From an uncultured Verrucomicrobiae bacterium (lineage in GTDB: Bacteria; Verrucomicrobiota; Verrucomicrobiia; Limisphaerales; Palsa-1400): a stretch of 64,000 nt of DNA. Location of the stretch: the NCBI GenBank assembly GCA_963702845.1, contig OY969763.1, positions 3,936,001-4,000,000 of the forward strand. The letters are read 5' to 3'. Shown here one piece after another: positions 7,076-23,204 of this stretch. The stretch's first letter is position 1. Each line of letters begins with the position of its first letter. The position numbers and the translations under genes were made by a program. The notes below the pieces were generated by a model. It did not search any database and had not been told where the DNA came from. It was given only the letters and a program-made list of their open reading frames with translations.

Positions 7076-7708
7076 TCAGCGGGTCGCGACCGGGGCCACC
7101 TTCTTGAAACTGACCTCTCTCAGATAGATTGGCTCGAGTTTTTCACCTGCGATGAAGTCAGTGCGATTCGAGGCAATCTGACCAAGCATGGCGGCTTGAG
7201 GATAGAGCAGTGCAGAGTTCTGTGCAGCAGAGTCCGGCCCCACGATGATTGTCCCACTTGCCGCTAACGCTTTCACTTCGGCAGCAGGCACGATGCGCAA
7301 TGGCTCAATCTCTCGTCGATGGTTCTCAGTCACTTCGTAAACGGCCAAATAAAACTCCTCGCGTTGCGCATCAACGACGACCGCCATCTTACCAAAAACT
7401 TTTTCGCGTTGCGCCTGCGCAGCGACGCATTCCACGCTACTGACGCCGAGTAATCTGATCTCGCGCGCAAGTTGCCAGCCTTGTGCCAGCGAAATTCCGC
7501 CACGAATTCCGGTGTACGAACCAGGTCCAGTACCAACGGCAATGCACTCAATTTCGTCACGTTCAACGCTACTGCTCGCAAGCGCGCGCTCGACCAGCGC
7601 GATCGCCGCGCGCCCCCCCATTTCAAACGCTTCCCCCAACACGCGGCCGTTCTCAACGACTGCGACGCTGCGCCGTTCGGAAGAGAATTCAACCGCCAAA
7701 ATCTTCAT
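7076..7708 (-). CDS. tsaB: tRNA threonylcarbamoyladenosine biosynthesis protein TsaB
   Basis: IAVGTGPGSYTGIR, VDAQREEFY and C-terminal LEPIYLR motifs; adjacent to tsaE. Confidence 0.93.
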   Translation of the reverse strand: MKILAVEFSSERRSVAVVENGRVLGEAFEMGGRAAIALVERALASSSVERDEIECIAVGTGPGSYTGIRGGISLAQGWQLAREIRLLGVSSVECVAAQAQREKVFGKMAVVVDAQREEFYLAVYEVTENHRREIEPLRIVPAAEVKALAASGTIIVGPDSAAQNSALLYPQAAMLGQIASNRTDFIAGEKLEPIYLREVSFKKVAPVATR

Positions 7709-8126
7709 ACGTTATTTCGCGATCCGTTTCGCTGAGTTGTTTGATTTGCACGCGCCGATATCTTGCGCCGGGAACTTCATTCGTATCCAGCCAGCGCTCG
7801 ATCCATTCAACGATCGCCACTCCTTTTGGTCCGGCAAGGTATGGCTCCAAACCTGCGCCGATGATTTGTTCACGGGTGTCGAGACGGTAAAGGTCGAGAT
7901 GGAACATTGGCAACCGCCCGCTGCGATATTCATTCACGAGTGCAAACGTTGGAGACAGGATGCGTTCGCTGACGCCAAGACCGCGCGCGATGCCTTTGGT
8001 CAGTTGGGTTTTGCCCGCGCCGAGATCGCCTGATAAACCAATCACCAGACCGGCACTTGCTTCCCTGCCCCACTGCGCTCCCAACGCTTCCGTTTCCGCA
8101 GCGCTATGAGAAATGTGCGTAGCCAT
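7689..8126 (-). CDS. tsaE: tRNA threonylcarbamoyladenosine ATPase TsaE
   Basis: GDLGAGKT, SPTFALVNEY, HLDLYRL, IVEW motifs. Confidence 0.95.
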   Translation of the reverse strand: MATHISHSAAETEALGAQWGREASAGLVIGLSGDLGAGKTQLTKGIARGLGVSERILSPTFALVNEYRSGRLPMFHLDLYRLDTREQIIGAGLEPYLAGPKGVAIVEWIERWLDTNEVPGARYRRVQIKQLSETDREITYEDFGG

Positions 8127-9042
8127 GGATATTTAGCTCACGAACGCCGTGTTGATCGCGAATTTTCAGACCGGGTATGGCAGTGATTTTGCCGATACAC
8201 GTCAGCCGTGTGTCCGGAAAATGTTTCTTCCAACCGTCCAGCAGCGCAACCGCATTTTTACTTGGCGACGTGAACAGCAGTTCAAAATCTTCGCCGTCGC
8301 TCAACGCAGCGATCAACGGCGTTTTTCCGTTCGATTTAGTTTTCGTCTGCAGTTTGGCAGCGCGACTGATTGGGATCGAACCCGCACGAATTTCAGCGCC
8401 GACGTTGCTGGCAGTGAGGATGTGCCGCAAGTCTCCAGCGAGCCCGTCACTCAAATCGATCATCGAGTGGATGTCGAAATGGTCAGCAAGCCAATGCGCC
8501 TCACGAATGCGCGGGTGGAAGTGCAAATGTTTCTCGGCGATGGATCCTCCCAGTTCCCCAGTGACAAACAGCGCGTCGCCGCCCTTCGCGCCCGAACGTC
8601 TGATACACTTGTCGCTCGCGACATCTCCCAGCAACGAAATGGAGATGAGCACGCGTTCCGGATTGGTCGTCGTTTCGCCGCCGACGATCGCAACGCCATA
8701 CTCACGCGCCACCGCCGACATTCCTTCGTAGATTTTATGCACGTATTCCACGTCGAAATTTTTTGGCAACGCAATCGTCACCAGCGCCGCAATTGGCCTA
8801 CCTGCCATCGCTGCTATGTCGCTTAAGCAACGCGCCAACGCTTTATGCCCGACGCGCACAGGGTCGGCGTCAGTCTCAAAATGAATCCCCTGCACGACAG
8901 CATCCGTTTTGAACAGGAGATATCGACCGGGCTGGCCGGAATCGAGCACAGCACAATCATCGCCAGCGCTCTCGATGACAAACGAATTTGTCGGCAGCGA
9001 CTTGGTCAGTTTTGAAATCAGTTCGAATTCGTTCACGTTCAA
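8104..9042 (-). CDS. thiL: Thiamine-monophosphate kinase
   Basis: EFELI, GDDCAV, LSDIAAMAG, GGET, MIDLSDGL, GEDFELLFT and C-terminal GYAHF. Confidence 0.95.
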   Translation of the reverse strand: MNVNEFELISKLTKSLPTNSFVIESAGDDCAVLDSGQPGRYLLFKTDAVVQGIHFETDADPVRVGHKALARCLSDIAAMAGRPIAALVTIALPKNFDVEYVHKIYEGMSAVAREYGVAIVGGETTTNPERVLISISLLGDVASDKCIRRSGAKGGDALFVTGELGGSIAEKHLHFHPRIREAHWLADHFDIHSMIDLSDGLAGDLRHILTASNVGAEIRAGSIPISRAAKLQTKTKSNGKTPLIAALSDGEDFELLFTSPSKNAVALLDGWKKHFPDTRLTCIGKITAIPGLKIRDQHGVRELNIHGYAHFS

Positions 9043-9833
9043 TGAATCGGTGGCAAAGGCAGCCCGCGGTTTGCCTGTTCCTGAAACAGCAGTAACAGAA
9101 AGTTAGCAAGATTAAACATGCTGTGCGCGGCAATGGGCGCCAGCAAATTGTCAGTCGATTCGTAGAGTAAAATTAAAACCATCGCAAAAAACGCGAGCGG
9201 AACGAACGTCACCCCGCTCATGTGAAACGCTGCGAAAACGATCGAGGTCCCCCAAAATGCAAGGCGCGGAAACCCCGCCTGCTTCAGCGTCGGGTACATC
9301 AAACCGCGAAAAAGTGATTCCTCCACAACCGGTGCGCCGACGATGGCGAGCACCGCCAGCAATGCACGCTGAAAGGGCGGCATTTCCGGCTTTTGCAACT
9401 CCTGCACCACTCGTTGCGCTTCGGGATGAAGGTGCAGATGACTCATTACCCAGTCCGACAATACCATCAGCTCCCCCGTAATGGGTATAACCAACATCCC
9501 AGTCAATAGCCCGATCCCGATCGCAAACCAACTCCCTCGGCGACCAAATCCAAACCCATCTTTCCACGTCATCCGATTCTCGCGCAGGAAAACTGCTATC
9601 CAAATCACCGCCGCTGCTTGCAAAAAGACCAATGAAATAATCAAGCCAAGCACGCTCCGCATTTGTTCGCTGATACCGAGTTTAAAGTGGTAGAGCAAAC
9701 CGACGATAATGTTGCCGAAACAGTACGTGGAGAAAACGCCGAGAAACAAACGAAACACGGCGTGGCCACTCCAGGGTCTGTGTGACAACATCGGGTTAAC
9801 GTAAACAGACCAGCCCGCCTCGGCAAGCGACAC
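9039..9833 (-). CDS. CPBP (CAAX/Abi) family intramembrane metalloprotease
   Basis: Multi-TM protein with APVVEESLFRG, FAAFH and AHSMFN motifs. Confidence 0.88.
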   Translation of the reverse strand: MSLAEAGWSVYVNPMLSHRPWSGHAVFRLFLGVFSTYCFGNIIVGLLYHFKLGISEQMRSVLGLIISLVFLQAAAVIWIAVFLRENRMTWKDGFGFGRRGSWFAIGIGLLTGMLVIPITGELMVLSDWVMSHLHLHPEAQRVVQELQKPEMPPFQRALLAVLAIVGAPVVEESLFRGLMYPTLKQAGFPRLAFWGTSIVFAAFHMSGVTFVPLAFFAMVLILLYESTDNLLAPIAAHSMFNLANFLLLLFQEQANRGLPLPPIH

Positions 9834-9965: not shown

Positions 9966-11678
9966 ATGACTTTACCCAATATTCTACGGATCACGGCCCT
10001 GGCCGCTGCTGCGAACCTTCTGGTCGCCAGCGCCGACGCCAAGCTCGATTTCGTCAAAGACGTCAAACCCCTCCTCGAACAAAACTGCGTCTCCTGCCAC
10101 AACGAAAAGCACGCCGAAGAAAACGGCGGTTACCGACTCGACAACAAAGCCGGTGCGTTCAAGGCAAAGAGCAATCGCCAACGAATTCTTCCCCGTCATC
10201 CTGAGGACAGCATGGTCTACAAAACTCTTCTCTTGCCGAAGGAAGACGACAAACACATGCCGTGGGCGCCCGATCCGAAGGACCGCCAACAACTGCCGCA
10301 GAACGATATCAACACGATCAAAACCTGGATTGCCGAGGGCGCTGAATGGCCCGACAACCTGACGCTTACCAACGTCCTGAAGATCAATTTCGCGCGCGAC
10401 ATCGTCCCCATCCTCGAAAAAGCCGGACCTGTCGCAGCTGCTGATATCGTCACACTCCGCCTGTGGCTTGATCAAGGCGCAGTCTGGCCGAACGACGTAA
10501 AGGTTCCCGCCGCGAAGAAAAGCCCCAAAGTCGCCGCTGGCGCAACGATTGATTTCTCACGCGACGTTCTGCCGATTTTCGAAAACGGCGCTCCTCTCTC
10601 CAAAGCGGACATCGCAACCTTGCGTAAGTGGGTCGCTCAAGGCGCGCTTTGGCCGGAGAACGCCACCATCAGCGGCAAAAAAGGCGGCAAGGAAATGACT
10701 CTCATCGAAGAAATCCGCAAAAAAGTGATGCAGGTCAGCACGGAACAAACCGCCGCCGATATGAAGCCCTACACGAATACGATTGCCGGGACGACCGTCA
10801 ATTACGCCATGGTTCCGATTCCCGGTGGTGAATTCATGATGGGCAGCCCCGAATCTGAACCCAAGAGTTCCGCTGACGAACATCCGCAGCACAAAGTGAA
10901 GATTGACCCGTTCTGGATGGAACAGCACGAAGTCACCTGGAACGAATACGAACTCTGGATGTATCCCGACGAAAACAAGCCTCACAACACTAGCGTTACC
11001 ACCAATTACACCAGCGAATCAGCCGACGCCGTCACGCGCCCGACTAAGCCCTATGTCGAAATGAGCTTCGGCATGGGCAAAGACGGCTATCCGGCCATCA
11101 GCATGACGCAACATGCGGCCAACAAATATTGCCAATGGCTCAGCGCCAAAACCGGCCACTTCTATCGTTTGCCGACTGAAGCCGAGTGGGAATACGCCTG
11201 CCGCGCCGGAACGACAACCGCTTACTCCTTCGGCGATGATGCGTCGAAAATCGGCGAGTATGCGTGGTTCGGCGACAACAGCGATTTGAAATATCAAAAG
11301 GTCGGCAAGAAAAAGCCCAATCCGTGGGGCCTCTACGACATGCACGGCAACGTCGCCGAATGGTGCCTCGATCAATACGATCCCGATTACTACAAACAAT
11401 TCGCCAACACCGTCTCAACGGAACCCTGGAATGTCGCCAAAAAGCCGTATCCACACGCCGTCCGTGGCGGTTCATGGGATGCCGATGCCGATCGCCTTCG
11501 TAGCGCCTCACGCACCAACTCCAGTCCCGCGTGGAAAATGCAGGATCCGCAATTGCCCAAGAGCATTTGGTATTTGACCGATGCCCAATTCGTCGGCTTC
11601 CGCGTCATTCGTCCGCTCAAGGTGCCGACGGCAGAAGAAATGTTTAAATATTGGAACAGCGGCGTAGAAAAAGAATGA
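9966..11678 (+). CDS. Exported protein: Planctomycete-type cytochrome c domain + two heme-less mini-repeats + FGE/SUMF1-like domain
   Basis: Signal peptide; DFVKDVKPLLEQNCVSCH...HMP...IKTWIAEGAEWP; C-terminal IPGGEFMMGS, HEVTW, RLPTEAEWEYACRAG, NPWGLYDMHGNVAEW, RGGSW, GFR. ORF is open from 9891; start uncertain. Confidence 0.88.
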   Translation: MTLPNILRITALAAAANLLVASADAKLDFVKDVKPLLEQNCVSCHNEKHAEENGGYRLDNKAGAFKAKSNRQRILPRHPEDSMVYKTLLLPKEDDKHMPWAPDPKDRQQLPQNDINTIKTWIAEGAEWPDNLTLTNVLKINFARDIVPILEKAGPVAAADIVTLRLWLDQGAVWPNDVKVPAAKKSPKVAAGATIDFSRDVLPIFENGAPLSKADIATLRKWVAQGALWPENATISGKKGGKEMTLIEEIRKKVMQVSTEQTAADMKPYTNTIAGTTVNYAMVPIPGGEFMMGSPESEPKSSADEHPQHKVKIDPFWMEQHEVTWNEYELWMYPDENKPHNTSVTTNYTSESADAVTRPTKPYVEMSFGMGKDGYPAISMTQHAANKYCQWLSAKTGHFYRLPTEAEWEYACRAGTTTAYSFGDDASKIGEYAWFGDNSDLKYQKVGKKKPNPWGLYDMHGNVAEWCLDQYDPDYYKQFANTVSTEPWNVAKKPYPHAVRGGSWDADADRLRSASRTNSSPAWKMQDPQLPKSIWYLTDAQFVGFRVIRPLKVPTAEEMFKYWNSGVEKE

Positions 11679-11721
11679 CGTGACGCCAACGAACTTGATA
11701 CCGTTTTGCCAAATACCCCGT

Positions 11722-11749
11722 CTGAAGACTGAAAACTGAAAACTAACAA
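11722..11749. repeat. Short imperfect 7-bp tandem repeat (CTGAAAA)
   Basis: ctgaaga ctgaaaa ctgaaaa ctaacaa, in the spacer before the oxidoreductase gene. Confidence 0.55.
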
Positions 11750-11758
11750 ACTCGCTTT

Positions 11759-13165
11759 ATGACACCCCAAGATCCAAAAGGCCAATACAGCCGTCGCAAT
11801 TTCCTCAAGACAACTGGCGCAGCTGCCGCAGGTGGTTCCATCTTGATCCCCCTTGCTGGCTGTCACACTCCGGAAAAGAAAACCACTCTCGCAACTGTCG
11901 CCACTGCGGCAGCCGCCACTCCCGTTTTCGCCCAACACACCGACACCTTGAAAATCGCGCTCATCGGTTGCGGTGGCCGCGGCACTGGCGCTTGCGGTCA
12001 GGCCTTGAACACCGAAGGGCCGGTCAAACTCGTCGCCATGGCCGACGTCTTTCGCGATCGTCTCGATAGCGCCTTGAACACGCTCAAAGACGAAGTGACC
12101 AAGCGCAACCAACCCGAGCGCATCGACGTTCCCGAAGAAAACAAATTCGTCGGCTTTGACGCTTATAAAAAGGCCATTGCTCTTGCCGACGTCGTCATCC
12201 TTGCGACACCTCCCGGTTTCCGCCCGATGACCTTCGAAGAAGCCGTCAAACAAGGCAAAAACATTTTCATGGAAAAACCGGTCGCAGTTGATGCTCCCGG
12301 TATTCGTAGAGTCCTCGCCGCTGCCCAGGAAGCGAAAGCGAAGAATTTGAAAGTAGGCGTCGGTCTCCAACGCCATCATCAAGCTGGCTATATCGAATCA
12401 CTCAAGCGCATTCACGACGGCGCCATTGGTGACGTCGTCGCCATGCGCGCCTACTGGAATGGAAACACGCCTTGGGTCCACCCTCGCGCCAAACTGGAAG
12501 AAGAGGCCGGTCGCAAACTGACCGAAATGGAATACCAGATGCGCAACTGGTATTACTTCGTCTGGATCTGCGGCGATCACATCGTCGAACAACACATCCA
12601 CAACCTCGACGTCATCAACTGGATTAAAGGCGGTCACCCTGTCAAAGCCCGTGGTAACGGCGGTTGCGAAACTCGCAGAGGCAAAGATTACGGTGAAATT
12701 TTCGACCATCACGTCGTCGAGTTCGAATACGCCGACGGTTCGGTGTGCTTCAGCCAATGCCGCCATCAACAAGGTTGCTGGAACGAAGTTGCTGAGTACG
12801 CCATCGGCACCAAAGGCAAAGCCAATTTGAGCGACGGACGCTGGACAATCACCGGCACTGAGAAATGGATGCACAAAGCCAAGGACAAGCGCGAAAAATA
12901 TCAGCAGGAACACGACGATCTTTTCGCCGCCATCCGCAGCAACACGCCTTACAACGAAGTTGAATACGGCGCGCATAGCACGATGACGTCAATCTTCGGT
13001 CGTATGGCTACCTATTCTGGTAAAGAACTCGATTGGGATGCCGCCATCGCGTCGAACATCGACACCATGCCCAAGACGCTCGCGTGGGATGCAGAAACTC
13101 CCACAAAACCCGGAGCCGACGGCATGTATCAATTGGCCATTCCCGGCCAAACCGTGACCGTATAA
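11759..13165 (+). CDS. Gfo/Idh/MocA family oxidoreductase with Tat signal and possible lipobox
   Basis: SRRNFLK twin-arginine motif, LAGC lipobox-like site, Rossmann GCGGRGTGA, EKPVAVD, GLQRHH, EQHIHNLD. Confidence 0.92.
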   Translation: MTPQDPKGQYSRRNFLKTTGAAAAGGSILIPLAGCHTPEKKTTLATVATAAAATPVFAQHTDTLKIALIGCGGRGTGACGQALNTEGPVKLVAMADVFRDRLDSALNTLKDEVTKRNQPERIDVPEENKFVGFDAYKKAIALADVVILATPPGFRPMTFEEAVKQGKNIFMEKPVAVDAPGIRRVLAAAQEAKAKNLKVGVGLQRHHQAGYIESLKRIHDGAIGDVVAMRAYWNGNTPWVHPRAKLEEEAGRKLTEMEYQMRNWYYFVWICGDHIVEQHIHNLDVINWIKGGHPVKARGNGGCETRRGKDYGEIFDHHVVEFEYADGSVCFSQCRHQQGCWNEVAEYAIGTKGKANLSDGRWTITGTEKWMHKAKDKREKYQQEHDDLFAAIRSNTPYNEVEYGAHSTMTSIFGRMATYSGKELDWDAAIASNIDTMPKTLAWDAETPTKPGADGMYQLAIPGQTVTV

Positions 13166-13182
13166 CACGCAGTCCAAATTCT

Positions 13183-13264
13183 GTCCCGAAGGGACATGTG
13201 AGAATAGCCCGGCGTTTTTAACGCCGGGCTATTCATTTGTGGGGAAAATAAGTCCCGACGGGAC
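13183..13264. repeat. REP-like composite palindrome, probably acting as a bidirectional terminator between convergent genes
   Basis: GTCCCGAAGGGAC (13183-13195), a perfect 15-bp inverted repeat GAATAGCCCGGCGTT-TTT-AACGCCGGGCTATTC (13202-13234), and GTCCCGACGGGAC (13252-13264). Confidence 0.75.
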
Positions 13265-13275
13265 GGCTGAAAAAA

Positions 13276-14322
13276 TCACTCTACGCGACTCGGAAACCTC
13301 GGCGACTGCACCCGCTGTACAACATCCCCCGGCTCCCTCAAAATCCGCACCAAAACCCCAGAAACCGATCGCGCGAACTTCATCCCCTCGAGCGGCCCAA
13401 GCACACTCACCGGCTTCGAAACCGCATCCGCCGTCGTCGCATCCGGCGCGATCACCGTCACCAAACTATGATCCGTCAAACCAACCCCGGTCCGCGGATC
13501 CACAATGTGCGAATAACGTTTCCCATCGATTTCAAGCCGCTGAAACATATCCCCCGAAGTCGCGAGCCCACAATTTTTAATCAACACGAATTCTTTCGCA
13601 GCATTCGTCTCCACAGACGACAGTTCCACCTTCCAACCGTCTTTCCCAGGAGGAACGTCACTCACCGCCATATCACCACCACCAGAAACCAACGCCCGCA
13701 CCACGCCATTTGTTTTCAGCACCTTCATCGCTGCATCCAACGCGTAGCCTTTGCCGATCCCGCCAACGTCCAATCGCATGTCAGGAACCAGCAATTCCAC
13801 CGTGCGTTCCTTGGGATTCAATCGCACCTTTTTGTATCCAACCGCTTTGCGCGCGCGTTCCAATTTAACCGGATCCGGCAATCGCTTCACCTGTCGAGCA
13901 TATCGCCAAAGATTCACCACCGGGCCAACCGTCACGTCGAACGCTCCCCGGCTTTTCTCCGAAAAAAACTGCGCTCGAGATAAAACATTCCAAAGATCGT
14001 CACTCACATGCACAGCCCTGCCGGAACCAGACGTGTGCGACAACCGGCTCAGTTCACTATCCGAATCGTAATCGCTAAGAATATCGTTGAGCTGTTTGAC
14101 GCGCGCGAATGCAGCCCCCGAAGCACGCTGAGCCTGCGCTGAATCATTGGCATAGAGGACTATTCGAAACGGCAATCCCATTTCCGTCTCGCTGAATTCA
14201 AACCGTTGCAGTTTTTCTCCAGCAACACCCGCGATCGAAAACGCGAGGCAAACAACTAATGCAATAAATCTCACAAAACTGTCTCGTAGCAACTGATGTA
14301 AGGAAGCTCTAACTCGCCACAT
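13276..14322 (-). CDS. apbE: FAD:protein FMN transferase ApbE
   Basis: MGLPFRI, SELSRL, GAFDVTVGP, LDVGGIGKGYA, GGD, ATSGD, RYSHIVDPRTG, ADA motifs; signal peptide. Confidence 0.93.
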   Translation of the reverse strand: MWRVRASLHQLLRDSFVRFIALVVCLAFSIAGVAGEKLQRFEFSETEMGLPFRIVLYANDSAQAQRASGAAFARVKQLNDILSDYDSDSELSRLSHTSGSGRAVHVSDDLWNVLSRAQFFSEKSRGAFDVTVGPVVNLWRYARQVKRLPDPVKLERARKAVGYKKVRLNPKERTVELLVPDMRLDVGGIGKGYALDAAMKVLKTNGVVRALVSGGGDMAVSDVPPGKDGWKVELSSVETNAAKEFVLIKNCGLATSGDMFQRLEIDGKRYSHIVDPRTGVGLTDHSLVTVIAPDATTADAVSKPVSVLGPLEGMKFARSVSGVLVRILREPGDVVQRVQSPRFPSRVE

Positions 14323-14370
14323 AGCGCGCGCCGAATAAATTAGAGCGTCCTAACGCCTGCCGCTACCAAT

Positions 14371-15720
14371 TTATTGAGCCTTCGCTTTCTTCGCTTGCTT
14401 CTTCAATTTGTGAGCATGCCGACCCGAGCCGTCGCCATCATCCTGCTTCCCGCCGGCAGGATTCAATTTGTCCAACACCGCCTGCAAACGTTCACGGGCG
14501 GCTTTGGTTTCATCGTTGTCGTTTGTGGAAGTGATCGGCTTTTCTTCGTAAGGCGCATCGCTCAAATCAAAAAGTTCCCCGCCTTTCGTGAGTTTGTAAC
14601 GCCCATCGCGCACATACCATTTGTTGCCAAGTTCAACAAACACCCAATTGCGCGACTTGCCCTTCTCGCCCCGAATCTGCGCAGCGAAACTGCGACCATC
14701 CATTGTTACGCCATCGGGCAACTTCGCTCCAGCAATCTCCGCAATCGTCGGAACAAAATCACTGAAATCGGTTAGGTCATTGTTCACCACTCCCGGCGGA
14801 GTCGTGCCCGGCCAATTCACGATCAACGGCACACGGCTTCCGCCCTCCAGCAATTCACCTTTATGTCCATTAATATGGCGGTCGTTCAATGTCGAACGGT
14901 CCGAATCCTTATGAGCCGTGCCGTTGTCGCCTGCGAACAACACCAAAGTTTTCTCGCGCAATTTCAAGGCATCCAATTCATCCATCAATTTTCCAACGAG
15001 CTCGTCCATATAAGTAATGTTCTCGGCGAAAAGATCTTTGCTCTCAGGAGTGCTGTCCGGCGTTTGGCGCATCGGCTCGTGAATGTGTACCATCGGATAA
15101 TAAAGAAAGAACGGCTCGTCCCGATGTTTGCGAATGAAGTTGACGGCGAACTCGTGGACCAGGTCCGGCATGTATTCTTTAGCGTGCAGTGTTTTCGTCA
15201 CGCCGTTTACGGTGTAGAGCGTCTTGGCATTGGGCTTGTCCTTATTTTGACCGGCATGATCGCCCTTCCAGTAAACGCCGCTGCCTTGAAAACGGAAATA
15301 TTCGTCGAACCCAAAATCACCTGGCTGGAGCGGTAATTGCCCCCATTTACCGGAAGACGCGCTGACGTAGCCTGCAGGCTTCAAAATTTTCGCAATCATC
15401 ATCTCGTTCTGAGGCTTGACCAACAACCCGCTGTCATTCCCCGTCATACCTGTTTGGAACGCGTATCGGCCGGTCAACAACTCACACCGCGACGGCCCGC
15501 ACAGCGGTGCTGCATACGAATACGTGAAACGCGTCCCCGCTTTAGCCATCGCATCAATGTGCGGCGTCTTAAACTTGTCCGCACCGTAACAACTGATGTT
15601 CCCCAAACCAACATCGTCAGAAAGGATCAGGATAATGTTTGGCTTCGACGCCTTCTCCGCTGCCTGACAACTGAGCGCAACAACGCAAAAAAGCACGATC
15701 GCGGTAACGAGGGATCTCAT
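14371..15720 (-). CDS. Arylsulfatase-like sulfatase (Cys-type formylglycine)
   Basis: PNIILILSDD, CGPSR (CxPxR), LLTGRY, GKW, GDNG, GSRVPLIV; signal peptide. Confidence 0.92.
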   Translation of the reverse strand: MRSLVTAIVLFCVVALSCQAAEKASKPNIILILSDDVGLGNISCYGADKFKTPHIDAMAKAGTRFTYSYAAPLCGPSRCELLTGRYAFQTGMTGNDSGLLVKPQNEMMIAKILKPAGYVSASSGKWGQLPLQPGDFGFDEYFRFQGSGVYWKGDHAGQNKDKPNAKTLYTVNGVTKTLHAKEYMPDLVHEFAVNFIRKHRDEPFFLYYPMVHIHEPMRQTPDSTPESKDLFAENITYMDELVGKLMDELDALKLREKTLVLFAGDNGTAHKDSDRSTLNDRHINGHKGELLEGGSRVPLIVNWPGTTPPGVVNNDLTDFSDFVPTIAEIAGAKLPDGVTMDGRSFAAQIRGEKGKSRNWVFVELGNKWYVRDGRYKLTKGGELFDLSDAPYEEKPITSTNDNDETKAARERLQAVLDKLNPAGGKQDDGDGSGRHAHKLKKQAKKAKAQ

Positions 15721-20844: not shown

Positions 20845-20891
20845 ACGCAATTGACTCGATACCGCTTGCCTGCGTAGCCTTGCAATGCCGT

Positions 20892-23204
20892 ATGACTAGC
20901 CCAGTTCGTTTTGCCCAATCGCTCGTGCTTGTACTGTTCACCGCAACATCCGCGAATCTTCACGCGCAAGCCACCCACATTCCGACGCTCGAAGAAGCTC
21001 AAGTCGCCAAGCGCGACGTTTGGGGCGAAGCCGCCATCGCCCAGCCAAATGGACCAAGTTACGAATTTTTCGAAAAACTCCTGCCCCCGCCGCGCTATGT
21101 CGATGCCGAATTCAAATACTATCCGATTCCGCTGAGCGCGCCGAACGCGCCGGTGAAAGCGCATCTCATTTCCAACGGCAGCGGCATCAACCTCTGGGGC
21201 ATTGCGCACAATTGGAAAGAACATCCGGCCGCATTTCATTTCCGCTTGGGCCCCGATCAATACGAGTTCGGCGGCCAACTCAGCCGCCTGCAAGAACCCA
21301 CGCTTGCTGAAGGTTACTTGCCGATTGTTGAAATTCGCTACCAGCACCCCAGCCCAACCGACAACGAAGCATGGCTCCCACTGAACCAAAAAACCAACGC
21401 CAACATCCCCCCAGAAATTTACAAACTCGAAGCCTTCGCTCCCACCGACAAGGCGTCCGCCGAATACGGCATTGCGTTCGTCAAATTCTCACTCGCGCAG
21501 GGAAACAACGGTTATGTCACCGTCGTTACCGATGCGCGCAGCCAACTCAAAGTAAAAGACGGCGTTCTCACCAACGACAAAGGTCAGATCCTCGCCTGGT
21601 TCGACAAGCACTGGAAATGCTCCGCCAATCGCGCCGAAGCAAAATTCGGCGGCAAAACAGTCGTCACACTCGCCGTCGCCAGCAAACCGGTAGAAGGAAA
21701 GTTCGACCTGCAAATGTCCGCCGAGCGCTACGCCAAAGACCGCGAAACATGCGCACAAACCTGGCGCGACATTCTCGGCCAGGGCATGAAAGTCGAAACG
21801 CCCGAACCGGTCGTCAATAACGCCTGGCGCCATTTGCTCGTGCAAAACTTCGAACTCATCAACGAGGACAAAATCAAATACAGCACCGGCAATTCCTACG
21901 ACGGCTTGTATGAAGCCGAAGGCAGCGATGCCGCACTCGCCATGATGGTTTGGGGCTACGAGCAGGACGCAAAACGCTTGATGGGCCCGCTCTTCGACTT
22001 TACCCGCAAAGGCCTCGAATATCACCAGGCCGGTTTCAAGCTAAATGACATCTGCCGCTATTACTGGCAAACACGTGACGCATCGATCTTCAAAGATTAT
22101 GAATCGCGCTGGCGCAAAGAAGCCGACCGCCTCGACAAACACCGCACCGGCGCGCACGGTCTCTTTCCCGAAGAACAATATTGCGGCGACGTTCACACCC
22201 GCTGCCAAAGCCTCAACGTAAACTCCAAGGCGTGGCGCGGCATGCGCGACCTCGGCGCGACCCTGCAGGAAATCGGCAATTCTGAAGGCGAGCACTACAT
22301 TCAGGTCGCCAACGAGTTCCGCCCGAAAGTTTTGGAAGCCGTTCGCGCCAGCGCCATTCATTCGACCACGCCGCCCTTTGTGCCGATGGCCCTCTTCACC
22401 AACGAAGGCCCGCACGACCCCATCACCCTTGTGCGCATTGGTGGTTATTGGAACATCATAATCGGCTACACCATTGCCAGCGGCGTGTTCCCGGTGGGCA
22501 GTGAAGAAGAAAACTGGATTCCAAATTATCAGGAAAATTACGGCGGTCTCGTCATGGGTATGATTCGCGCCGGTGGTCCCGTGGTGCGTTGGTGGAATTC
22601 CAGTTTCAAAGTCAACCCGCTCTATGGAACCCGCTACGCTCTCGACACCTTGCGCCGCGATGACGTCGATCGCGCGCTCGTTTGCTTCTACGGAATGCTC
22701 GGACAAGGCTTCACCCGCAACACGTTCGAATCCGGCGAAGTCCAATGCCTAACGCCACTCGACGAAGGCGGGCGCTTATTGTCACTGCCTCCGAACAGCG
22801 CCGCCAATTCCCACCTCCTCTCGATGCTCCGTTACATGCTCGTGCAGGATTACGACAACACCGACGACGGCAAGCCCGACACCTTGCGCCTTTGCTTCGC
22901 CACGCCGAAACGCTGGATGGAAGACGGCAAGACTTTGAACATCGAACGCGCACCGACAACGTTCGGCCCCGTTGCAATCAAAATGGAATCGCACATCGCG
23001 CAAGGAAACGTCACCGCAGAAGTCACGTTGCCCGAACGAAATGCGCCGGACAAAATCCTGATGCGCGCGCGTGTCCCAGATGGTTTCAAAACCGTTTCTG
23101 CGGAAGTCGAAGGCAAAACCTTCAAAGCCGATGACAAAGGCACCGTCGACCTCACCGGCCTTAAAGGCAAACATACCATCCATTTCGCCGTCGAAAAAAT
23201 TTAA
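20892..23204 (+). CDS. Secreted protein of unknown function, putative (alpha/alpha)6-barrel glycoside-processing enzyme, paralog 1
   Basis: Signal peptide; helical aromatic/acidic core; C-terminal LRLCFATPKRW...APTTFGPV beta-domain resembling six-hairpin glycosidase-like proteins. Confidence 0.6.
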   Translation: MTSPVRFAQSLVLVLFTATSANLHAQATHIPTLEEAQVAKRDVWGEAAIAQPNGPSYEFFEKLLPPPRYVDAEFKYYPIPLSAPNAPVKAHLISNGSGINLWGIAHNWKEHPAAFHFRLGPDQYEFGGQLSRLQEPTLAEGYLPIVEIRYQHPSPTDNEAWLPLNQKTNANIPPEIYKLEAFAPTDKASAEYGIAFVKFSLAQGNNGYVTVVTDARSQLKVKDGVLTNDKGQILAWFDKHWKCSANRAEAKFGGKTVVTLAVASKPVEGKFDLQMSAERYAKDRETCAQTWRDILGQGMKVETPEPVVNNAWRHLLVQNFELINEDKIKYSTGNSYDGLYEAEGSDAALAMMVWGYEQDAKRLMGPLFDFTRKGLEYHQAGFKLNDICRYYWQTRDASIFKDYESRWRKEADRLDKHRTGAHGLFPEEQYCGDVHTRCQSLNVNSKAWRGMRDLGATLQEIGNSEGEHYIQVANEFRPKVLEAVRASAIHSTTPPFVPMALFTNEGPHDPITLVRIGGYWNIIIGYTIASGVFPVGSEEENWIPNYQENYGGLVMGMIRAGGPVVRWWNSSFKVNPLYGTRYALDTLRRDDVDRALVCFYGMLGQGFTRNTFESGEVQCLTPLDEGGRLLSLPPNSAANSHLLSMLRYMLVQDYDNTDDGKPDTLRLCFATPKRWMEDGKTLNIERAPTTFGPVAIKMESHIAQGNVTAEVTLPERNAPDKILMRARVPDGFKTVSAEVEGKTFKADDKGTVDLTGLKGKHTIHFAVEKI

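Follow-up and report, generated by a model that had tools for sequence, protein, structure and literature searches.

A putative covalent flavin carrier with a formylglycine-generating enzyme fold, encoded with ApbE and a Tat-exported dehydrogenase in an uncultured Verrucomicrobiae bacterium

Which protein does an ApbE flavin transferase modify at a locus that encodes no Rnf, Nqr or FMN-binding-domain substrate? This question is raised by positions 9966-15720 of a 64,000-nucleotide stretch of contig OY969763.1 (hereafter, the window) from an uncultured Verrucomicrobiae bacterium of the order Limisphaerales. ApbE attaches flavin mononucleotide (FMN) to the last residue of a D-x-x-[ST]-G-A-[ST] motif (PMC12052999), refined to D-[GAIQ]-[IALVF]-[ST]-G-A-[ST] (PMC10722498). 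The apbE gene of the locus (13276-14322, minus strand; ApbE Pfam match) lies beside two plus-strand genes, one for a 570-residue protein combining a cytochrome c domain with a formylglycine-generating enzyme (FGE) fold (9966-11678; Pfam PF07635 and PF03781), and one for a 468-residue oxidoreductase of the Gfo/Idh/MocA family with a twin-arginine translocation (Tat) signal (11759-13165; TAT_signal and GFO_IDH_MocA matches). The initial annotation had found neither Rnf/Nqr nor an FMN-binding-domain substrate nearby, and the absence holds genome-wide, with no match to FMN_bind, NqrB/RnfD or DUF2271 in an assembly that is 89.8% complete. The analysis presented here indicates that the FGE-fold protein probably carries covalent FMN on Thr360.

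The predicted acceptor closes the heptapeptide DAVTRPT (11025-11045, plus strand; residues 354-360), a candidate non-canonical flavinylation motif that agrees with the refined ApbE motif at five of seven positions and departs from the canonical one; no canonical instance, searched as D-x(1,2)-[ST]GA[ST], was found in the open reading frames (ORFs) of at least 80 amino acids in the window. The motif had been described as part of a low-complexity insertion; motif and position are real, but it sits at the conserved C-terminal end of that insertion. In the structure model (mean predicted local distance difference test score, pLDDT, 92) it follows a short helix and closes the insertion with the lowest confidence, where the variable stretch just N-terminal of it has a pLDDT of 53 (residues 335-344) and the motif itself about 69-76. 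Anchoring succeeded for 118 of the 120 best homologues; these 118 all retain D, P and the final T/S, the first T being replaced by Ala in 20. A free first T and a fixed last T/S would fit a motif whose final residue alone accepts the flavin (PMC12052999). Across 39 diverse members, 49-86% identical, the heptapeptide ends in T 27 times and in S 12 times; P is kept in 38 and D in 37, and the Arg position varies freely.

One member reads DAISGAT, and a homologue search started from it returned 120 proteins, assigned where named to Flavobacteriaceae/Bacteroidota, of which 102-103 carry the canonical D-x-x-[ST]-G-A-[ST] in the same alignment column and all 120 end it in T/S. In a tree computed with the motif region masked (67 rows, five outgroups; deep nodes weak), these flavobacterial-type homologues group in a single clade (FastTree support 0.97) that is nested within the members with x-Pro in place of Gly-Ala; hence, the canonical form looks derived, probably by drift towards the ApbE consensus. 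Even at 37-41% identity, members read DGVTGPT, DAVTGPT or EGAIARPS; such a motif is lacking in a generic FGE protein. The pattern was matched by 27 of 32 subfamily representatives, hand-picked after inspection, versus 7 of 118 other FGE-domain proteins, whose matches are unanchored; the underlying cluster-representative search was dominated by multi-repeat FGE proteins, and 118 of its 150 entries were set aside as non-subfamily. The proposal that DAVTRPT is a non-canonical flavinylation site is therefore well supported, as far as sequences can speak to it, by the conservation of the final T/S, by the SGAT variant in the same column and by the co-occurrence with apbE.

That co-occurrence was assessed at several phylogenetic levels. 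The window ApbE (PF02424, 237 bits, above cut-off) has the DxGGxxKG, TSG and HIxDP motifs and scores under the enterobacterial equivalog cut-off, and in an ApbE tree the FGE-linked enzymes fall into two deep branches. Across 161 genomes of the order, the FGE gene and the ApbE branch are both present in 129 and both absent in 26, with six discordant genomes (FGE only in five, ApbE branch only in one), and 12 families are represented among the 20 FGE-negative genomes listed. Within the organism's own family the identical 10 of 18 genomes carry both genes, mostly unlinked (on different contigs or 313 kb apart). For 201 genomes of the class, any apbE occurs in 50/50 FGE-positive versus 40/151 FGE-negative genomes, and the ApbE branch (E 1e-65) in 48/50 versus 1/151; in the lone exception, G224, a divergent FGE gene adjoins the apbE. 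The identical 14 of 24 genomes of one small-genome genus (g6) carry the FGE gene and any apbE, again unlinked; profile searches in this genus found FMN_bind in 0/5, NqrB/RnfD in 0/4 and DUF2271 in 0/4 genomes, and a DUF3570 search gave no match, as did its control.

Gene neighbourhoods tell a similar story. At 80 FGE loci in named genomes, apbE is nearby in 33 (29 of the 59 with 4 kb downstream), gfo in 58 and a sulfatase in 5; the corresponding counts for 74 metagenome loci, three weak ones included, are 23, 48 and 1, and the metagenome scan with a flavobacterial query brought back x-Pro members. The apbE gene appears in four arrangements, co-oriented after gfo, convergent as in the window, divergent upstream or directly downstream. 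When 1202 neighbouring ORFs from 151 loci were clustered, only FGE, gfo and apbE recurred widely (138, 93 and 52 loci); the next cluster has no Pfam match, and a TIM barrel occurs in 11 loci. The own genome has three apbE genes, including the window copy. One (L082:7296-10289) lies beside a thioredoxin-like gene and a DUF3570 gene with its own canonical motif, a known DUF3570 flavinylation cluster. The other (L081:7575-9142) has no obvious signal peptide, directly follows a MobA-like NTP transferase gene with no motif-bearing substrate nearby, and is possibly cytoplasmic. Members of the ApbE branch are also found fused to exported carbohydrate-related domains (sulfatase/phosphodiesterase, GDSL, DUF1080, Gfo and PQQ-like repeats; P0287-P0300, P0275-P0278, P0299, P0302, P0307), most of them without a flavinylation-like motif.

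As for the protein thus predicted to be modified, a Pfam scan identified PSCyt1 (residues 41-99) and FGE-sulfatase (281-524) and no other domain. A single haem c attachment motif, CVSCH (10086-10100, plus strand; residues 41-45), precedes a conserved Met-Pro at residues 98-99, the likely distal haem ligand, and two truncated cytochrome repeats that lack haem (approximately 10383-10664, plus strand) where many homologues have a second haem. All four products of the locus had been called exported, and all four N-termini do carry a hydrophobic stretch or a Tat motif, as read directly rather than with a signal-peptide predictor; for the FGE-fold protein, a hydrophobic N-terminus and the haem c motif point to an extracytosolic location, likewise without a dedicated predictor. 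Its best Foldseek matches in the PDB are TvpA, PvdO and FGE. It shares with FGE (SUMF1) the fold (TM-score about 0.68 to the target) and an RLPTEAEWEY core, but is exported, with an extra loop, a cytochrome fusion and a C-terminal hallmark of the subfamily, DPQLPKSIWY (11544-11573, plus strand; by subfamily conservation). True FGE requires two copper-binding active-site cysteines (10.1101/2021.05.21.445229), and the RGGSW...RSASR segment (11463-11513, plus strand; from sequence) is without this catalytic pair. The only cysteines are residues 41, 44, 389, 412 and 467, and since none lies beyond RGGSW the protein is not a formylglycine-generating enzyme; a role as true FGE or sulfatase maturase was rejected.

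For a redox role of the FGE fold, the closest precedent in function is the dihydropyoverdine dehydrogenase PvdO, a periplasmic, cysteine-less FGE-fold protein tied to oxidation and purified without detectable cofactor (PMC6206403). It is the best PDB sequence match of the window protein, which differs from it in reaching only 114 bits against an NCBIfam equivalog cut-off of 500 and in having no pyoverdine genes nearby. Other architectures occur in the subfamily: a 783-residue homologue (P0007) carries a tandem pair of FGE domains, and in about half of the verrucomicrobial members (P0132 and related 720-residue proteins) an FG-GAP-like repeat domain of about 400 residues replaces the cytochrome. 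Structure-atlas matches for this alternative N-terminal domain all scored below 0.9 and serve as leads only.

The presumed electron donor is the Tat-exported dehydrogenase, which shows an SRRNFLK twin-arginine signal, a GCGGRG Rossmann motif, EKP and a DHIVEQHIH acid/His segment, and whose nearest solved structures are inositol dehydrogenases; judging by its family, it would hold its nicotinamide cofactor, NAD(P), tightly. The Tat motif and LAGC lipobox-like site noted at the outset are both present. Among the adjacent Gfo proteins examined, a count that leaves out 12 further pairs, twin arginine is found in 60/60 and a lipobox in 1/60, and the lipobox was rejected as a family trait. The Gfo subfamily is present in 36/36 FGE-positive genomes outside g6, mostly as several paralogues (up to nine or more; four in the own genome). 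Since there is one FGE gene in 49 of 50 FGE-positive genomes against several dehydrogenase paralogues, the FGE carrier probably serves the whole dehydrogenase family. Like the Bacteroides BT2156-BT2160 3-keto-glycoside pathway and Zymomonas GFOR, for which the available text of PMC8121099 mentions no FGE or ApbE partner, the window locus has a Tat-exported Gfo/Idh/MocA enzyme with presumed bound NAD(P). Tat-exported BT2158 was proposed to use NAD(P) that stays bound, together with a sugar acceptor not yet identified (PMC8121099), and because such an acceptor had to be proposed, the re-oxidation of exported NAD(P) dehydrogenases is still a question. Unlike BT2158 (NF058561), the window enzyme belongs to a different subfamily (30.5 versus 750 bits), at a locus without DUF1080 or TIM barrel. 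Periplasmic sugar oxidation of the LacABC type, with flavin and cytochrome c as cofactors, resembles the window system. The LacABC-type glycoside 3-dehydrogenases use a GMC flavoenzyme (PMC9007349), unlike the window, which pairs an NAD(P) enzyme with a separate predicted FMN carrier.

In the mechanism that we propose, the neighbouring ApbE would flavinylate the cytochrome/FGE-fold protein on Thr360; the FMN on the FGE domain would take hydride from the NAD(P)H that exported Gfo/Idh/MocA dehydrogenases hold, the two proteins making contact; and electrons would then pass in one-electron steps from FMN to the protein's own haem c and from there to a terminal oxidase. COX1 matches (haem-copper oxidases) and cytochrome c assembly genes are present in the own genome, and gene context makes a chain from NAD over FMN to haem c plausible for the window locus. 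The full dehydrogenase-to-haem chain through a flavinylated FGE-fold protein is close to an even call. In its general form, with the widespread subfamily as a novel class of covalent FMN carriers that bear an x-Pro recognition motif, a hub that wires Tat-exported, NAD-locked sugar dehydrogenases to cytochromes, the proposal is tentative and has a somewhat less than even chance of being right.

Several observations count against this proposal. At the motif, Arg-Pro for Gly-Ala is not reported as accepted by any ApbE in the text consulted, milder motif changes already halve flavinylation (PMC12052999), and 17 Ser/Thr columns are more than 90% conserved in the flavobacterial set, so that invariance alone is not specific. 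The co-occurrence samples overlap, related genomes do not count as independent, and FGE-linked genes of the same lineage served to build the profiles. ApbE-FGE fusions, found in 4 of 40 long ApbE homologues, belong to one lineage and were hence rejected as strong evidence on their own; fusions to sulfatase-like domains are more frequent (10/40). The Gfo subfamily occurs without an FGE gene in 14 genomes, and genus g6 keeps FGE and ApbE with the Gfo subfamily in 0/24 genomes at 1e-100; other Gfo-fold proteins number 7 in each of four FGE-positive genomes of that genus and 4 in an FGE-negative one. As to haem, among 121 FGE homologues (138 ORFs less 17 near contig starts), CxxCH is absent in 69 and present once or twice in 52; none of the 120 flavobacterial-type homologues has it; and COX1 was found in 0/4 g6 genomes, the same four having cytochrome c assembly genes. 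In haem-less members the cytochrome position is taken by an FG-GAP-like domain or a lipoprotein linker, or is empty. Haem as an obligatory part was rejected on the 69 homologues without it; it would instead be one of several electron exits, with the FMN-bearing FGE domain as the constant part.

Two more neighbourhoods were noted. In G151 (L175:3554-5770) an FGE gene without haem motif and a gene for a multihaem cytochrome with seven CxxCH motifs are transcribed divergently, an arrangement absent from five other genomes of the genus, where the FGE protein is haem-bearing or unresolved. In genus g6 (L088-L090, L095, L096) a stand-alone FGE lipoprotein gene lies a few kb from a succinate dehydrogenase/fumarate reductase-like operon, identified by eye, and a TatD-like gene; the operon may serve as an electron exit, or the arrangement may be no more than synteny.

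Other explanations accept or dispense with the flavin in different ways. A flavinylated carrier might act only as a maintenance device, rescuing NADH-trapped copies of redox-neutral, glycoside-cleaving or epimerising Gfo enzymes that recycle their own NAD. We regard this as unlikely, although a single carrier for so many paralogues, the optional haem, the TIM-barrel, nucleoside-symporter and GMC neighbours at low-GC loci, the retention of FGE/ApbE in g6 alongside only other Gfo-fold domains and no COX1, and the proposed turnover of BT2158 with bound cofactor (PMC8121099) would all suit it; the one or two haems fused to 52 of 121 members fit a steady flow of electrons better, only 11 of 151 loci have lyase-type TIM barrels as neighbours, and the window Gfo falls far under the BT2158 family cut-off. 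The FGE domain could also be a covalent-flavin enzyme in its own right, oxidising a small molecule such as the reduced co-substrate of a GFOR-like dehydrogenase without direct protein contact. PvdO, required for an oxidation step (PMC6206403) and the second fold match, lends itself to this idea, as do the many invariant subfamily-specific residues at the C-terminus, the FG-GAP-like or sugar-binding domains that stand in for the cytochrome in some members and the genomes with only one of the FGE and Gfo genes; with no recurring substrate-specific neighbours, and one copy per genome despite many sugar enzymes, it seems improbable. An unmodified loop, structural or phosphate-binding, is likewise improbable, with the ApbE branch then freeing FMN from flavin adenine dinucleotide or modifying a different protein whose gene co-occurs with FGE. 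Arg-Pro is off the ApbE motif at two positions, a similar-looking stretch occurs in the same region of PvdO and the own genome is incomplete; yet the full canonical motif stands in 103 of the 120 flavobacterial-type homologues, the last position swaps only between the hydroxyl residues Thr and Ser, and no third neighbour gene shows the same distribution.

The fourth gene of the locus, a Cys-type sulfatase (CGPSR; 14371-15720, or to 15759, minus strand; Sulfatase Pfam match), had suggested that the system might act on sulfated glycans. In a further reading, all four genes would form one such system, with the FGE-like protein maturing or assisting the sulfatase. Hints of such a link are confined to the G200 operon of sulfatase, FGE, apbE and gfo and to the sulfatase-like domains fused to ApbE, beside the 48 bp between the window sulfatase and the apbE downstream of it and a related sulfatase 2 kb from another apbE paralogue. 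The FGE catalytic cysteines are missing, however, the few sulfatases at FGE loci (5/80 and 1/74) are never at the window's position, the genome has about 50 sulfatase matches, and a close sulfatase homologue occurs in 2/18 family genomes versus 10/18 for FGE and ApbE. Such a four-gene system is accordingly very improbable, the link to sulfated glycans is not supported, and the window sulfatase is treated as a passenger, a local neighbour of the module.

All four genes of the annotated module do exist, yet they are arranged in two convergent units, FGE and gfo on the plus strand (80 bp apart) and sulfatase and apbE on the minus strand, which rules out a single four-gene operon, and the sulfatase is not a member; the core of the module is the three genes for the cytochrome c/FGE-fold protein, the Tat Gfo/Idh/MocA dehydrogenase and ApbE. 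A 15-bp hairpin (13202-13234) between the convergent stop codons is a likely bidirectional terminator, judging by its sequence and position. Two short GTCCC...GGGAC palindromes flank it on either side (13182-13264), with only two weak partial copies in the rest of the genome, and a promoter/terminator scan of the window gave results at chance level. Upstream of and divergent from the FGE gene lies a minus-strand, housekeeping-like run (7076-9833) with a CAAX protease (Pfam) and thiL-, tsaE- and tsaB-like genes judged by eye, and a 774-residue exported protein without Pfam match is encoded at 20880-23204. Close homologues bear Limisphaerales/Verrucomicrobiota names.

Returning to the flavinylated carrier, the known ApbE-modified extracytosolic carriers comprise FMN_bind (NqrC/RnfG/NosR/PplA), NqrB/RnfD, DUF2271, DUF3570, Flavodoxin_4 and FMN_red (PMC8238504, 10.1101/2024.03.13.584918). 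The window protein resembles them in being exported, encoded with apbE, furnished with a seven-residue Asp-to-Thr/Ser motif and found by the same orphan-apbE logic. It differs in its FGE fold, in lacking any listed substrate domain, in the x-Pro that replaces Gly-Ala in most members and in its partner, a soluble NAD(P) dehydrogenase exported by Tat where the known carriers have a membrane electron-transfer module. Our verdict is that the module would represent ApbE-based extracytosolic electron transfer in a new form, with an FGE-fold carrier. A literature search, which did not cover subscription papers, found no description of ApbE flavinylation of an FGE-fold protein; FGE, sulfatase and Gfo go unmentioned in the available text of PMC8238504 and of its 2024 follow-up; the large gene-cluster tables of both may list the neighbourhood.

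If true, covalent FMN on this protein would extend the ApbE substrates by a new fold and motif and account for part of the unexplained orphan apbE genes of PMC8238504, in which 4% of apbE genomes remain orphan. It would also give a function to a large subfamily mis-annotated as 'formylglycine-generating enzyme' and explain the re-oxidation of Tat-exported dehydrogenases, with their bound NAD(P), in a compartment that has no free NAD pool. Should the hub reading hold as well, it would explain extracytoplasmic NAD-dependent oxidation in Verrucomicrobiota, Bacteroidota and relatives, the module working as an 'NADH dehydrogenase without free NADH'.

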